DNA of 64,000 nucleotides from an uncultured Erysipelotrichaceae bacterium (GTDB lineage Bacteria > Bacillota_I > Bacilli_A > Erysipelotrichales > Erysipelotrichaceae). The notes under the pieces were generated by a model. The model worked only from the letters and a program-made list of their open reading frames with translations, searched no databases and was not told the origin of the DNA. Position numbers and translations under genes: made by a program. Shown here piece by piece: positions 1-5,512 of this stretch (within the stretch, counting starts at the first letter, position 1; each line of letters begins with the position of its first letter). The stretch spans positions 31 to 64,030 of the forward strand of contig CALUVF010000081.1 in assembly GCA_944324155.1 (NCBI GenBank), written 5' to 3'.

Positions 1-33
1 TCGTGCATCAAACCTTTGAGGCCTTTGAATAGT

Positions 34-426
34 ATGTGCGTATTCTGCGAGATAATAAAGGGCAATATCCCTTCTAGCAAGGTCTATGAAGACGATAGAG
101 TCTTAGCGATCTTAGATCTTAGCCAGACCACCAAAGGTCATACCTTAGTGATGCCTAAGAAGCATTACGAAGATCTTAGTGCGATCCCAAGCGATGAATT
201 AATGGATCTGATGTCGAAGGTCCAAATGATTGCCAAACACCTTGAAAAGGTTTTAAATGCCAAAGGCTATAATATCCTGATCAATAAAGGCGAAGTCGCG
301 GGACAGACGATGATGCATCTACATGTCCACATCATACCGCGCTATAGCGAAGATGATACGATCAAGATCGAATTTAGTGAAAACAAATTCGATCTAAACA
401 GCCTATCAAAAAAAGTCAAGTTATAA
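34..426 (+). CDS. HIT-family (histidine triad) nucleotide-binding protein
   Basis: ORF 16-426. Histidine triad 'HLHVHIIP' and N-terminal 'CVFCEIIKG' are typical of HIT/Hint proteins. ATG at 34 preferred over TTG at 16. Confidence 0.85.
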   Translation: MCVFCEIIKGNIPSSKVYEDDRVLAILDLSQTTKGHTLVMPKKHYEDLSAIPSDELMDLMSKVQMIAKHLEKVLNAKGYNILINKGEVAGQTMMHLHVHIIPRYSEDDTIKIEFSENKFDLNSLSKKVKL

Positions 427-470
427 AAACTTGGCTTTTTTATCGCCTAAATCAAAAACCCCTTAAGGGC

Positions 471-1406
471 TTAATCGTGCTTATAGAAACTGCGGTTCTC
501 TAAGGCAAACAATTTAGGAGTAAACTCCCCTTCTTTGATCTGATCCAAAGCTTTTGTGATCGTATTGATACGAGCATCGATATTATCGATCAGATAGAGA
601 AGTTCCGCTTCAAGAGTCATGGGTCTGACAGGCGAGCCAAATTCTAGCTGTCCGTGATGCGCCAAAACCATATGTCTTAAGATCAGGGCTTCTTTAGCTT
701 CTGATAACTTGAGATCATCGATCACTTCTGTTAGCTTGGCATGTAAGATCGAGATATGTCCCAAAAGCTTGCCTTTGGTCGTATATTCAGTAACAATCGG
801 TGAAGACAGTTCTTCGATCTTACCAAGGTCATGTAAGATTATGCCAGCACACAGATAATCGTAATCGACCTGCGGGTAAATCTCAGTGATCGCCTTAGCC
901 ACCTCTAACATGCCTTTGACATGCGTAGCTAATCCTCCGATAAAAGAGTGATGGATCTTAGAGGCCGCCGGGTATTCATAGAAAGCTTCGCCATACTCAT
1001 TTAAGACGGCTACTGTGATCTTGGCAATGATCGGATTTTTGATGCGATTGATCGCTTCTGATAAAGCACTTCTCAATTCTTCTTTTTTGATCGGCGATTT
1101 AAAAATAAAATCGCTCTTATTGATCTCACTTTGGATCAAAGGCAAGACCTTGGCGATCTTTAATTGCAGGTTTTGACGATATTTGATGACGTCAAATTCA
1201 AACTCAAAGACCTTCCCTACTTCCATCTCTTTAGCGATCTCAGGTTTGACATCCCAGATCTTAGCTTCGATATCTTTGGAATCATCTTGTAATATAAGAC
1301 TTAGATAAGGTGCCCCGGAATTAGTCGTTCCTTTTGTCAAACCAGCGACCAAAAGAGGCATCTCAAGATGTTCGCCTTCTTTAAAATCCGCAACTTTTTT
1401 ATTCAT
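471..1406 (-). CDS. yhaM: 3'-5' exoribonuclease YhaM-like (OB-fold + HD domain)
   Basis: 311 aa. N-terminal OB-fold region and C-terminal HD motif 'ILHDLGK ... HH'. Start overlaps the stop of the upstream gene (ATGAATAA). Confidence 0.8.
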   Translation of the reverse strand: MNKKVADFKEGEHLEMPLLVAGLTKGTTNSGAPYLSLILQDDSKDIEAKIWDVKPEIAKEMEVGKVFEFEFDVIKYRQNLQLKIAKVLPLIQSEINKSDFIFKSPIKKEELRSALSEAINRIKNPIIAKITVAVLNEYGEAFYEYPAASKIHHSFIGGLATHVKGMLEVAKAITEIYPQVDYDYLCAGIILHDLGKIEELSSPIVTEYTTKGKLLGHISILHAKLTEVIDDLKLSEAKEALILRHMVLAHHGQLEFGSPVRPMTLEAELLYLIDNIDARINTITKALDQIKEGEFTPKLFALENRSFYKHD

Positions 1407-3390
1407 CTTTCCACCTCATTTCATTCAATATCGTATAGATATTATCACTAGTATAACCCTTAGAGGCCAGATAGTGATAGACGCGATTTCTAAGATCTGT
1501 CCCTGATAGTTTTTTAGCATAGCGATCTTTGGCCTTTTTAGCGTCTTTACGAAGGTTTTCGATCTCATTGAAACTAGCATCGCTGAAATCGAGTTCGTTT
1601 ATTACGCTATCGATTATCGTGCTAGAAAAGCCTTCCTCATATAGTTTTCTTTTAAGCATCATCTTTTGCATGCGCAAAGAGCGCGAACGATAATTGTTTT
1701 GATATTTTTCAGCTAGTTTATAAGCTTTCTTAAACTCTCTATCATCATCTTTATTCATGACCTTTTCGATCGTCTTGACACTTACACCATCTTTTCTTAA
1801 GGCATTTGAGATATGCTTATAAGAAAATAATTTTGCCTCAAAACTTTCGACTTTGTTTTTGGCATAGGACTCATCGTTTAAAAGTCCGAGCTTTTCTAAA
1901 CGATCGATCAAGGCATTGATCTCTTTAATCGGCATTTGAGGATACTTTTTTTGAATAAGGTCATACATCTGCTTGATAGTATAGTCTTTGCGTGCTATAG
2001 CTTTAAGACAAGCCACATAAGCCAAGATGCCAGCTTCCTTAGACTTTAAAAGATCATAGGTCGCATTAGAAATACTTTCGCCCTTGCGAAGGCCCTCGTT
2101 TAGAAAATCATCTAAGGAAACGACCAGATCTTCTTTTTCTTTATAGCCGTTTTCTAATTTGAGCTTAACATAGTCGTTATATAAACGGACATCTTTTAAA
2201 AGGTAGTAATCATGAAATTCACTCATAGCACTATTATATACATTCATGACTTTTCTAACAAAGGTATCGGCATCATATTCTTTAGCTAGTGTCAGACCCT
2301 TTTCTTTCATCTCTTCGCGTTTTGCCTTATCTAATGACCATAACTTTTCCACCTTTTGATACAGTTCTTTTTCGTCATCAAAATAAAAACCGTTCTCTTC
2401 TTCAAACAAGAGATCTTTAACACATTCATCGCGGCGGGCAAAGATGATATTGCCACTAGCCATGGCTTCTAGATAGGTCATGCCCTGGGTTTCACTTGTA
2501 GAAGCGCTGATAAAGGCATCGGCGGCATGATAGTAGCTTGGCACTTCGCTAAAAGGCTTTTTGCCGACAAAGATCGCGACATCGCCAAGTTCTAATTCTT
2601 TGGCCATATCTTTTAGGTTATCTTCATCTGGTCCCCCACCTACGATCACAAGCTTGGCAGGCAGTTTTTTATCTTTGGCGATCTTCATCATCTTCAAAAG
2701 CATGTCGATCGATTTTTCCTGCGCGATCCGGCCTACAAAAAGCAGCATCAATTCATTATCTTTGACATGGCATTCCTTTCTGATCATAGCCACCTTGGAA
2801 TGATCAGAGTGGACACGGTCAAAGCGGTCTAATTCAATACCGGTAGGAATGATCTCAGCTTTGACACCCATGCCATAGCTGGATTTTAAAAGATCGTAGG
2901 TCTTTTTAGAAGGAACGATCATTCTTAAACAGTGTTTGCCAAGATATTTGGTCCAGTTGATGACGACCTTTTTGGCAATTTTATCAAACGAGTCACTATT
3001 AAAGATGTTGATGTAGTGGGTATAGTCTTCATAAGTCGTATGATAGGTCCGCACTAAGGGAAGATGCAAAGATTCAGCGCACATCTGCCCAAAGATCCCA
3101 ACGCCAAATTCGGTATGCAGGTGAATGAGATCAAGATCCAATTTCCTAATTTCATCGATCATTAAAGGGTGTATGGGCGAAGTTAAAGCATAGCCATAGA
3201 GCTTTTTAACTTCGATCCCTGGAAGCCTGATGATGTTGCCGTCTCTTTCGACTTTCAATAAGCCCTTATGGGTACATATGACAAAAACCTCATGTCCGAG
3301 TTGACTGAGTTTTTTTCTGAGCAGTTCAACTGATGTCACGACGCCATTGACATCAGGTAGATAGGTATCTGAAAATAATCCGATCCGCAT
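1399..3390 (-). CDS. GT4 glycosyltransferase (monoglucosyl-diacylglycerol synthase-like) fused to a C-terminal RecX domain
   Basis: 663 aa. Residues 1 to about 390 are GT4 ('MRIGLFSDTYLPDVNGV', 'ETQGMTYLEAMASG'). Residues about 395-663 align by eye along the whole length with long Bacillus-type RecX ('LIDRLEKLGLLNDESYA', 'LRKDGVSVKTIEKV', 'YEEGFSSTIIDSVI', 'LASKGYTSDNIYTIL'). No stop at the junction (about nt 2208). Confidence 0.8.
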   Translation of the reverse strand: MRIGLFSDTYLPDVNGVVTSVELLRKKLSQLGHEVFVICTHKGLLKVERDGNIIRLPGIEVKKLYGYALTSPIHPLMIDEIRKLDLDLIHLHTEFGVGIFGQMCAESLHLPLVRTYHTTYEDYTHYINIFNSDSFDKIAKKVVINWTKYLGKHCLRMIVPSKKTYDLLKSSYGMGVKAEIIPTGIELDRFDRVHSDHSKVAMIRKECHVKDNELMLLFVGRIAQEKSIDMLLKMMKIAKDKKLPAKLVIVGGGPDEDNLKDMAKELELGDVAIFVGKKPFSEVPSYYHAADAFISASTSETQGMTYLEAMASGNIIFARRDECVKDLLFEEENGFYFDDEKELYQKVEKLWSLDKAKREEMKEKGLTLAKEYDADTFVRKVMNVYNSAMSEFHDYYLLKDVRLYNDYVKLKLENGYKEKEDLVVSLDDFLNEGLRKGESISNATYDLLKSKEAGILAYVACLKAIARKDYTIKQMYDLIQKKYPQMPIKEINALIDRLEKLGLLNDESYAKNKVESFEAKLFSYKHISNALRKDGVSVKTIEKVMNKDDDREFKKAYKLAEKYQNNYRSRSLRMQKMMLKRKLYEEGFSSTIIDSVINELDFSDASFNEIENLRKDAKKAKDRYAKKLSGTDLRNRVYHYLASKGYTSDNIYTILNEMRWKDE

Positions 3391-3403: not shown

Positions 3404-4423
3404 TTAGCGCTTGAGCCTTAGATAAGCAAAACAGCCCGCACCAATAAACATTACCAGATAGAAAGTTAAAAAACGCCACAAAAGCATAGCTCCGCTGACG
3501 ATATTAGTTCCAAACAGGTTGCCAAACATCAAAACAAAGATAGCCTCGGCCCCGCCACTGGCCCCAGGAATTGGTATTAATCCGGTAGCGATCGAGACAA
3601 AAGAGCCCATGGCGATCGAATTTAAGAATAATTCAAAAGAAAGCGGTACTCCTAAGGCCAAAAAAACCACATAGGGAATGGCGTAATAGACCAGTAGTCT
3701 TATGACGCACAAAAGACCGCATTTAATGATAACGCCTTTATTGTGACGAAGCTTTTCTGCTTCGCTGCGAAATTTTTCAAGTTGGACCTCAATTGAGGCG
3801 ATCGTTTTTTCGGGATCCTTTACAAGATGAACGCGATGTCCTAAATATACCCCTTTGTTTTTGATCCATTCATGCAGGCGCTTAAACTTCGCTAAACCAT
3901 AGATAAAGAAAATAATGGCCGTATTTAAAGCAAAACCAATGAGCACAACCGCAAAAAGATTAGAAAAATTGGAATAAAAATACGGGAATTTAATAATGAT
4001 AAAAAACAAAGAAACCAAAGTCAGAACACTTTGATAAATAATGAACTCTAACCACAAAACACTGCCTGAATCCCCGATATCAACCCCTTGCTTCTTATAG
4101 ACATAGATCTGAGCGATCTGACCGCCGCTGGCTGAAGGTGTTAAACCATGAAATAAAGAAGCCACAAAAGAATTGAGGAAACCCTGACTGGCACGATATT
4201 CAGGGTGCGTGATATTGGTGAGGACCTTTAAACATAGACCGACCATAAATTGCCAGACAAATACTAAAAACAAGGCCAATAAAAGAATCCAAGGATCGGC
4301 CGAAGCGATGGTATTTAAGATCACATCGGGATCATCTTTTAAAACAAGCCACAAGACAAAGGCACCGATCGCAATGATAAAACCTAAATTGACAAAGGTA
4401 TTAGAGAAAATCTTTTTAATCAT
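3404..4423 (-). CDS. flippase-like / LPG_synthase_TM (UPF0104) family polytopic membrane protein
   Basis: 339 aa with multiple hydrophobic helices. Sandwiched between and overlapping (ATGA) two glycolipid-type GT4 genes. Confidence 0.55.
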   Translation of the reverse strand: MIKKIFSNTFVNLGFIIAIGAFVLWLVLKDDPDVILNTIASADPWILLLALFLVFVWQFMVGLCLKVLTNITHPEYRASQGFLNSFVASLFHGLTPSASGGQIAQIYVYKKQGVDIGDSGSVLWLEFIIYQSVLTLVSLFFIIIKFPYFYSNFSNLFAVVLIGFALNTAIIFFIYGLAKFKRLHEWIKNKGVYLGHRVHLVKDPEKTIASIEVQLEKFRSEAEKLRHNKGVIIKCGLLCVIRLLVYYAIPYVVFLALGVPLSFELFLNSIAMGSFVSIATGLIPIPGASGGAEAIFVLMFGNLFGTNIVSGAMLLWRFLTFYLVMFIGAGCFAYLRLKR

Positions 4424-5424
4424 AACTTTTGATAGACCCTTTCATATACTGTCTTTAATTGTTTGCCGATCTCTTCGATCGAACGTGACTTGGCCACTTC
4501 ATAACCTCCTTCAGTGGTCGAGGGGAGCTCTTTTTTTAAGCAAGCATCAATCAAACGGATAAAATCTTCCTTGGTTTTACCCATATAGCAATTTTCTTTA
4601 TCCTTTAACCAACCTTCAAAAGCCCCAATATCGCGCACGATAACCTGCTGTTTTGAAGCCAGGGCCTCTAAGACGACGATGCCTTCGGTCTCTTCATAAG
4701 ACGGGAAAAAGAAACAATCGCTGGCCAAATAGGCCCCTTCAATGATCGCGCCTTTAACATAACCGGGCATTATGACATTTAAGGGCAGATCTTCTAAAGC
4801 TTTATTGATGACCGGAGGTAAAGATATCTTAGGTGTAGTGCCAAACCAGATGAATTTATACTCTGGCAAGGCCCTGGCCACCTCGAAGAAATCCAAGATC
4901 CCCTTTCTTTCAAAAAGCATGCCGACCCCTAAGACGATCTTGTCATCTCTTGAAAGCGAGAAGTAGCGATAAAAGGCTTCAACCTTATCTTTGTCATATA
5001 CAAAGCGTCCTAAATCGATGCCATTGCTTATAGGGGTAATGGGAAGTTCAATGCCATAAGAATGCAAAAGGCTCTTGGCATAAGGCGTTGGGGTGATAAT
5101 CTCGTCGGCGCTTGAATAAAGCGAGATCAAATGATTTTTGACAAAAGGTGCCAGCTGGTTAGAGAACATAAAGGAGTTACGAAAATCCTCTTCCGTAGAA
5201 TGAGCATGATAAATAACTGCCCGATGATGGCGGCGGGCATTTTCGACCATCGCTTTGGAATTTAAAAGCGTCGTATTAATATGTAAGATATCGTAGTCAT
5301 CTAAGGGATTTAAAGTGTAATCAATACCAGCACTCTCGCAAGCCATGATCTGATGGCGGCGGGCTCGGCCAATCCCTGAAATCGATAAAACTTTTTCACT
5401 TTCAAAATATAACAATACTTTCAT
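4420..5424 (-). CDS. GT4 glycosyltransferase (diglucosyl-diacylglycerol synthase / CpoA-like)
   Basis: 334 aa. GT4 C-terminal motif 'PSYEETEGIVVLEALAS'. Size and context match the second glucolipid synthase of mollicutes and streptococci. Confidence 0.7.
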   Translation of the reverse strand: MKVLLYFESEKVLSISGIGRARRHQIMACESAGIDYTLNPLDDYDILHINTTLLNSKAMVENARRHHRAVIYHAHSTEEDFRNSFMFSNQLAPFVKNHLISLYSSADEIITPTPYAKSLLHSYGIELPITPISNGIDLGRFVYDKDKVEAFYRYFSLSRDDKIVLGVGMLFERKGILDFFEVARALPEYKFIWFGTTPKISLPPVINKALEDLPLNVIMPGYVKGAIIEGAYLASDCFFFPSYEETEGIVVLEALASKQQVIVRDIGAFEGWLKDKENCYMGKTKEDFIRLIDACLKKELPSTTEGGYEVAKSRSIEEIGKQLKTVYERVYQKL

Positions 5425-5471: not shown

Positions 5472-5504
5472 TACAAAACAAAAACAGGCCTTTTTTAAGC
5501 CTGC
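5472..5504 (-). terminator. rho-independent terminator after pyk
   Basis: Minus strand: CAGGC-ttaaaaaag-GCCTG followed by TTTTTGTTTTG. Short GC-rich stem. Confidence 0.5.
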
Positions 5505-5512
5505 TTAATGTC

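Follow-up and report, generated by a model that had tools for sequence, protein, structure and literature searches.

The stretch analysed here (64,000 nt, positions 31 to 64,030 of the forward strand of contig CALUVF010000081.1, assembly GCA_944324155.1; hereafter the window) derives from an uncultured gut bacterium of the Erysipelotrichaceae, and carries on its minus strand a gene, denoted mgs::recX, whose product joins a lipid glycosyltransferase (GT) of family 4 (GT4) to a RecX, the regulator of RecA filaments. The open reading frame (ORF) is single and uninterrupted over 663 codons, encodes 663 amino acids, and is preceded by a strong Shine-Dalgarno (SD) sequence, AAGGGGG, 7 nt 5' of its ATG. 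A sequence-only reading of this DNA had proposed an in-frame fusion between a GT4 enzyme and a complete RecX, and this is borne out by the one open frame, by profile matches to both halves (GT4 families of Pfam and NCBIfam at the N-terminus; RecX_HTH1, RecX_HTH3 and PRK14135 at the C-terminus), and by the RecX fold predicted for the latter. The features of the fused gene, in window coordinates, are as follows.

1399..3390, minus strand: fused mgs::recX ORF, with its ATG at 3390 and its stop codon at 1399-1401.
2227..3390, minus strand: GT4 (GT-B fold) half resembling alpha-monoglucosyl-diacylglycerol synthase, residues 1-388, from Pfam, NCBIfam and the AlphaFold fold.
2467..2493, minus strand: EX7E catalytic motif, E300...E308, SETQGMTYLEA, invariant in 52 fused orthologues.
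2233..2261, minus strand: promoter-like TTGTTA-17-TATAAT of leaderless geometry, ending 6 nt before the ATG of Met389 and probably there by chance.
2224..2226, minus strand: junction Met389 (MSEF; ATG 2226-2224), a vestigial recX start region by comparison with the recX starts of unfused sister lineages.
1402..2226, minus strand: complete long-type RecX half, residues 389-663, from PRK14135, Pfam RecX_HTH1/HTH2/HTH3 and a RecX-only model.
2068..2208, minus strand: N-terminal beta-domain of long RecX, residues 395-441, from AlphaFold models.
1420..1977, minus strand: helical repeat body of RecX, residues 472-657, four three-helix bundles including HTH1/HTH2/HTH3, from the models and Pfam.

Profile and structural comparisons agree on the identity of the N-terminal half. 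The Pfam families Glyco_transf_4 and Glycos_transf_1 match residues 14-189 (96 bits) and 205-365 (113 bits) of the fused protein, and NF049988, the NCBIfam family for alpha-monoglucosyl-diacylglycerol (MGlcDAG) synthase, matches residues 1-391 along profile positions 1-390 of 398 (268 bits, E = 1.7e-79). NF049988 is the best NCBIfam family for this half by a wide margin, the next scoring 83 bits, in agreement with the sequence-only assignment of the first ~390 residues to the monoglucosyl-diacylglycerol-synthase class of GT4 enzymes. Two AlphaFold models were used, one of the whole fused protein (predicted local distance difference test, pLDDT, 87.4) and one of residues 389-663 alone (pLDDT 93.2). 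The GT half is modelled as a GT-B fold, for which the best PDB matches are MshA, BshA, PimA, PimB' and WaaG. Alongside the EX7E motif (E300-x7-E308), the residues G220-R221, E225-K226 and GGGP 251-254 do not vary among the 52 fused orthologues. Invariance of these motifs, together with the status of the fused ORF as the sole mgs-like gene in the window genome, and with a neighbouring BgsA/IagA-type enzyme that scores above its curated cut-off, argues that GT function has been retained. By homology, this half would transfer glucose from UDP-glucose to diacylglycerol and, by pathway logic, would thereby supply substrate to the adjacent BgsA-type enzyme.

The C-terminal half is similarly recognizable at several levels. 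PRK14135, the NCBIfam family for long RecX, matches residues 409-659 along profile positions 22-264 of 267 (92 bits, E = 5e-26); Pfam RecX_HTH1 (42.7 bits) and RecX_HTH3 (48.5 bits) both exceed their gathering score of 26; and the RecX structure 3e3v is matched from sequence alone (E = 5e-8). Alignment of 24 RecX halves shows HTH3 in every one of them, HTH1 in 23 and HTH2 in 20. The top 50 Foldseek matches of the whole-protein model are GT4 enzymes only, and the RecX-only model was used to place the RecX fold: its six best PDB matches are all RecX (3d5l, 3e3v, 3dfg, 3c1d), with target-normalised TM-scores of 0.73-0.82 (3e3v, 0.82; 3c1d, 0.81) and E = 1e-9 for 3d5l, and outside RecX structures no PDB match falls under E = 0.01. 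In the whole model, the GT-B fold (residues 1-393) is followed by a three-stranded beta-domain (395-441), a long helix, and four three-helix bundles (472-657). RecX had initially been placed at nt 1402-2208 and credited with three helical repeats; it is indeed a complete long RecX built largely of helical repeats, but its true span is 1402-2226, starting at Met389, and the models give it a small N-terminal beta-domain and four bundles. Fold matches of the beta-domain itself are weak (E = 0.02-0.4) and fall on small beta-barrels, namely MopII, tungstate-binding proteins and RPA OB.

The fusion is not peculiar to the window. We sampled 201 Erysipelotrichales genomes (84 genera, 3 families), of which 189 match the fused protein at E <= 2e-89, as expected for a fused ORF; all 150 matches listed in full extend from residue 1 (residue 2 in one case) to at least residue 648 within a single frame of 625-849 amino acids. 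A protein search returned more than 120 clusters of ~650-672 amino acids with the same set of GT4 and RecX Pfam domains, down to 42% identity. When the RecX profile was applied to a class-wide sample of 300 genomes, then, among the matches listed, all 23 RecX from the same order lay in frames of 658-683 amino acids, whereas those of other orders were all 233-317 amino acids long; every RecX listed from outside the Erysipelotrichales stands alone. Cultured carriers include Erysipelothrix tonsillarum, Bulleidia extructa, Amedibacillus dolichus, Faecalicoccus pleomorphus and Thomasclavelia saccharogumia, and Lactimicrobium massiliense and Absicoccus porci are further named carriers. Some matches span 2.6-2.9 kb, and might have signified insertions or splits; this was rejected, as the extra length comes from the upstream BgsA-type GT4, which the match had taken in, next to an intact fused ORF. 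The sequence comparisons indicate that the fusion is an ancient shared derived trait of the Erysipelotrichales, near order-wide, with separate genes persisting in two sister lineages.

In the window the fused gene is one of four in an operon delimited by terminators, the others encoding an IagA/BgsA-type GT4, a flippase-like membrane protein and the exoribonuclease YhaM; family matches thus agree with the operon context of second GT4 and flippase-like protein proposed by the sequence-only reading.

5482..5506, minus strand: terminator 3' of pyk, upstream operon boundary.
4420..5424, minus strand: IagA/BgsA-type GT4 (glycolipid anchor or diglucosyl-diacylglycerol (DGlcDAG)-synthase type), 476 bits against a cut-off of 460.
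3404..4423, minus strand: flippase-like membrane protein (LPG_synthase_TM / TIGR00374), from Pfam and NCBIfam.
471..1406, minus strand: yhaM, 3'-5' exoribonuclease of 311 amino acids, from NCBIfam.
456..472, minus strand: terminator 3' of yhaM, downstream operon boundary.

The genes are tightly packed: the flippase-like gene overlaps the IagA/BgsA-type gene by 4 nt, and the last 8 nt of the fused ORF are shared with the start of yhaM, whose SD (GAGGTGG) lies within the final RecX codons (MRWK). Put otherwise, the last RecX codons (…EMRWKDE; window 1399-1425) encode both the yhaM SD and an overlapping ATG; this second use as the yhaM ribosome-binding site may partly account for the near-invariance of the C-terminal EM.W (E657, M658) across the fused family. 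An overlap of 8-47 nt between recX and yhaM recurs in every lineage examined, whether fused, unfused or lacking the GT (loci L016 2898-4629, L127 4001-5723, L018 2790-4875 and L019 2653-4378), such that the recX-yhaM coupling is more stable than the link between mgs and recX. In B. subtilis, yhaM is part of the SOS-regulated yhaONM operon. The flippase-like gene is a variable operon member, since it is missing from this position in some Erysipelotrichales, where the BgsA-type GT4 abuts the fused gene (L053 2881-5891; L091 2875-5864). Beyond the downstream terminator, an ordinary-looking HIT-family ORF (window 16-426, plus strand; histidine triad HLHVHIIPR) converges on yhaM.

Two lineages outside the order illuminate how the fusion may have arisen, as both retain, on a single strand, the array flippase-like > mgs > recX > yhaM, NCBIfam matches confirming the identity of the genes. 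One is a complete genome labelled 'Mycoplasma sp. P36-A1' (NZ_CP168083.1); the other comprises small-genome Bacilli known from rumen and gut metagenome-assembled genomes of several genera (e.g. JAYFOJ010000002.1, CAMJEC010000003.1). In both, the first codons of recX, read in the +1 frame, lie inside mgs, and the recX start precedes the mgs stop by 23-86 nt. The recX ATG of P36-A1 lies inside the mgs codons for ...VYNNA, 86 nt before the stop, and recX of the small-genome Bacilli starts with a GTG 23 nt before it; in one genome this GTG follows a GGAGG located within the mgs codons for MEV. In fused proteins, the conserved ...VY of the final GT helix runs gaplessly into the RecX beta-domain. 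In the other families sampled, mgs and recX lie on different contigs, or mgs is followed by tpi, and adjacency of the two genes is therefore not universal; in one such family of the class, for example, mgs is followed directly by a short triose-phosphate isomerase gene and not by recX (L020 3439-5362, genome G205).

From these comparative data, the ancestor would have carried an overlapping array of (bgsA) > flippase-like > mgs > recX > yhaM, in which recX, in the +1 frame, started inside the last mgs codons, just past the VY conserved at the end of the last GT helix. A deletion of 1 nt or an insertion of 2 nt in the overlap, in the common ancestor of the Erysipelotrichales, would have brought recX into frame with mgs, removing an mgs tail of 8-28 residues and rendering the start codon and SD of recX redundant. 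The fusion thus probably arose by merging two overlapping neighbour genes into one frame. Recent loss of a stop codon between adjacent genes had been suggested; an origin from adjacent mgs and recX accords with the two sister lineages, but the event appears ancient and order-wide, and since the precursor genes overlap in different frames, a frame-merging indel is needed rather than simple stop-codon loss.

Within the order, the GT has in places been secondarily lost, while RecX is retained and remains coupled to yhaM. One such genus encodes a clean RecX of 268 amino acids, and in another sub-lineage a protein of 386 amino acids combines a degenerate GT stub of ~110 amino acids ('MMRIGFLTNEYP...') with a complete RecX. 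This stub-RecX (L018 3715-4875, genome G120) represents a natural deletion derivative of the fusion, and is found in four sampled genomes of one genus. At a further locus (L021, genome G113, C1:2061335-2063306), the N-terminal part of the GT is broken by stops and an ORF of 450 amino acids covering residues 216-662 is open, which is possibly a decaying copy; genome G095 is similar, with an ORF of 436 amino acids covering residues 245-659.

Several explanations of the fused frame have to be weighed. That it is an artefact or a recent accident, through sequencing or assembly error or strain-specific loss of a stop codon, is vanishingly improbable, given that 23 aligned orthologues from three families share the gapless junction, and the full-length-type match in 189 of 201 genomes; sequencing error in particular is ruled out, since genomes across the order, among them complete ones from cultured strains, conserve this frame. 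Whether the one ORF yields one protein or two is a subtler matter, as RecX might be freed by proteolysis or by internal initiation, for example on a leaderless transcript beginning at ATG389. Met389 lies within about 2-3 codons of the recX start sites of unfused sister lineages, the promoter-like TTGTTA-17-TATAAT of the window ends 6 nt before its codon, the ATG is retained in a relative of 73% identity, and the secondarily stand-alone RecX of some lineages shows that RecX works alone. Against this, Met occupies position 389 only in the window protein and that same relative, nearly all the remaining fused orthologues having L, I, V or Y there. Nor does an SD motif precede ATG389, although strong ones stand before both the fused ORF and yhaM. 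The sequence-only reading had likewise seen neither stop codon nor ribosome-binding site at the junction, and had noted the internal ATG (MSEF), which is present but encodes residue 389 and not 397. An internal leaderless promoter before ATG389 was considered and rejected: 20 such motifs occur against 17.6 expected, and neither motif nor ATG is conserved. Lack of conservation of Met389, absence of an SD and the chance-level frequency of the promoter-like motif together make a conserved translational restart at the junction unlikely. Proteolytic release is less readily discounted from sequence, though it would have to contend with the structure of the junction, where the last GT helix (374-393) passes into the beta-domain without a low-confidence, exposed linker, as a continuous helix-to-strand transition of pLDDT 84-93 (a junction-spanning peptide of the fused protein is, for example, VMNVYNSAMSEFHDYYLLK). 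On balance, we regard separate products as quite unlikely.

A different alternative is that the RecX domain has been neofunctionalised to serve the glycosyltransferase, as an oligomerisation, nucleic-acid-sensing or regulatory module, and no longer regulates RecA. The adjacency of mgs and recX is older than the fusion, and could hint at a functional link; in addition, the title of a paper cited in PMC3083329, Vikstrom et al. 2000 (J Biol Chem 275:9296), reports that double-stranded DNA stimulates a regulatory glycolipid-synthesising enzyme of A. laidlawii. A moonlighting use of the RecX fold had also been entertained from the sequence, but it sits poorly with the genomic evidence. The window genome encodes RecA (533 bits) and DprA (214 bits) and holds no RecX besides the fused copy, and those lineages which lost the whole glycolipid GT kept RecX, in its coupling to yhaM. 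The residues invariant in the RecX half of the fused family are R435, D469, D506, L531, G587, LRN 633-635 and G645, of which D506, L531, G587 and G645 are also invariant in the free RecX proteins of the sister lineages. The relative rate of divergence is likewise that of free RecX: the two halves are 56% (GT) and 40% (RecX) identical in an unfused pair, a ratio of 0.71, and 50% and 37% identical in a fused pair, a ratio of 0.74. Since RecX is the only copy, shares these residues, outlives the GT and diverges at an unchanged ratio, we take the C-terminal half to be a normal RecX, constrained in the usual way, which by its context would bind and limit RecA filaments; neofunctionalisation is accordingly a reading to which we assign a low probability.

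We consider it probable that mgs::recX specifies one bifunctional protein with both ancestral activities, in which RecX is carried on a membrane-surface enzyme. In this scheme the N-terminal GT4 half would make monoglucosyl-diacylglycerol at the cytoplasmic face of the membrane, the product being the substrate of the adjacent BgsA/IagA-type enzyme, and the C-terminal half would remain the RecX of the cell, modulating RecA filaments. RecX would then be made 1:1 with a peripheral membrane enzyme to which it is physically attached, and if the protein is bifunctional and its GT half resides at the membrane surface as its relatives do, RecX may be tethered there in equal stoichiometry, a membrane tether being one of the options raised by the sequence-only reading.

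Such a tether may be neutral, the frozen accident of two translationally coupled genes, or it may be useful, by holding a potent inhibitor of RecA close to the membrane and away from the bulk nucleoid; in model bacteria, RecA stores, RecA bundles and DNA-uptake machinery are located at the membrane. In B. subtilis, RecX modulates RecA and is found at the poles and nucleoid in competent cells, the DNA-uptake machinery being polar also (PMC3527212), and acts on RecA threads (PMC3527212, PMC5587729). In E. coli, the storage structures and bundles formed by RecA associate with the membrane and show interactions with anionic phospholipids (PMC6363387). That the tether has been selected for a spatial or regulatory role is nonetheless doubtful. 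Such a role might take the form of RecX acting on membrane RecA only, such that repair filaments on the nucleoid are spared, or of engagement of RecX with RecA or DNA modulating glycolipid synthesis; the reverse link, if true, would couple the envelope to DNA damage.

Several observations weigh against a bifunctional protein. Both halves fall below the equivalog cut-offs of their best families, the GT half scoring 268 bits where NF049988 demands 400, and the RecX half 92 bits where PRK14135 demands 240. The unfused sister mgs genes are likewise under the former cut-off (225-303 bits), and the latter is very strict, in that none of the 300 class genomes passes it and free RecX proteins score 120-208 bits. 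RecX_HTH2 is sub-threshold in the window protein (16.9 against 26 bits), though at the expected position. Residence of the GT half at the membrane surface is assumed from relatives, and an N-terminal appendage of 388 amino acids could hinder the entry of RecX into the groove of the RecA filament. A classical SOS setting for RecA is also in doubt: in the window genome (1.3 Mb) the LexA profile has just two matches, both sub-threshold (84 and 47 bits against a cut-off of 111) and both spanning the C-terminal peptidase part only (C27:31979-32338; C146:9686-10069), and a search of the window for SOS (Cheo) boxes with two mismatches gave 21 matches against 18.3 expected, none of them convincing near the operon.

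Each half of the fusion belongs to a well-known family, and comparison with characterized members clarifies what is conserved and what is new. Like RecX of B. subtilis (YfhG, 264 amino acids; PMC3527212, PMC5587729), the window RecX has an N-terminal beta-domain and stacked three-helix bundles, and is the sole RecX beside RecA, but its N-terminus is continuous with a GT4 of 388 amino acids and it has neither start nor SD of its own. RecX of E. coli (166 amino acids; PDB 3c1d) shares the three-helix-repeat fold (TM-score 0.81 normalised to the target), but is a short form without the beta-domain and fourth bundle, and is encoded downstream of recA and co-transcribed with it, and not with lipid or RNase genes. 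E. faecalis produces MGlcDAG with BgsB, a homologue of alMGS, and turns it into DGlcDAG with BgsA (PMC3083329); the GT half resembles BgsB and alMGS of A. laidlawii in its best family over residues 1-391, in its GT4 class and GT-B fold, in the EX7E motif, and in sharing an operon with a BgsA/IagA-type GT, but in place of the short C-terminal tail of the free enzymes it has RecX. The unfused arrays of P36-A1 and the small-genome Bacilli have the same genes in the same order and strand, with overlapping neighbours and a RecX that begins right after VY, but there mgs and recX are separate ORFs in different frames, and recX has a start codon of its own (ATG or GTG), which in one lineage follows a GGAGG SD.

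In the literature we found no paper that describes or tests a fusion of a glycolipid synthase with RecX, and the combination is thus without a published description that we could find. Public records name the fused proteins either 'RecX family transcriptional regulator' or 'glycosyltransferase', a split that amounts to a systematic annotation problem. To our knowledge, it is poorly understood what restrains RecX from shutting down RecA in vivo, and where in the cell RecX acts. In this context an entire bacterial order, with common gut commensals and cultured strains among its members, would constitute a natural experiment on a RecX permanently joined to a membrane-surface lipid enzyme; the unfused sister lineages, and the sub-lineages in which the enzyme half was later lost, provide natural controls. 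Should the tether be neutral, the Erysipelotrichales would offer a clean and datable example of overlapping genes fused by the merging of their frames; if it is functional, they would provide an example of spatial control of recombination through membrane anchoring.

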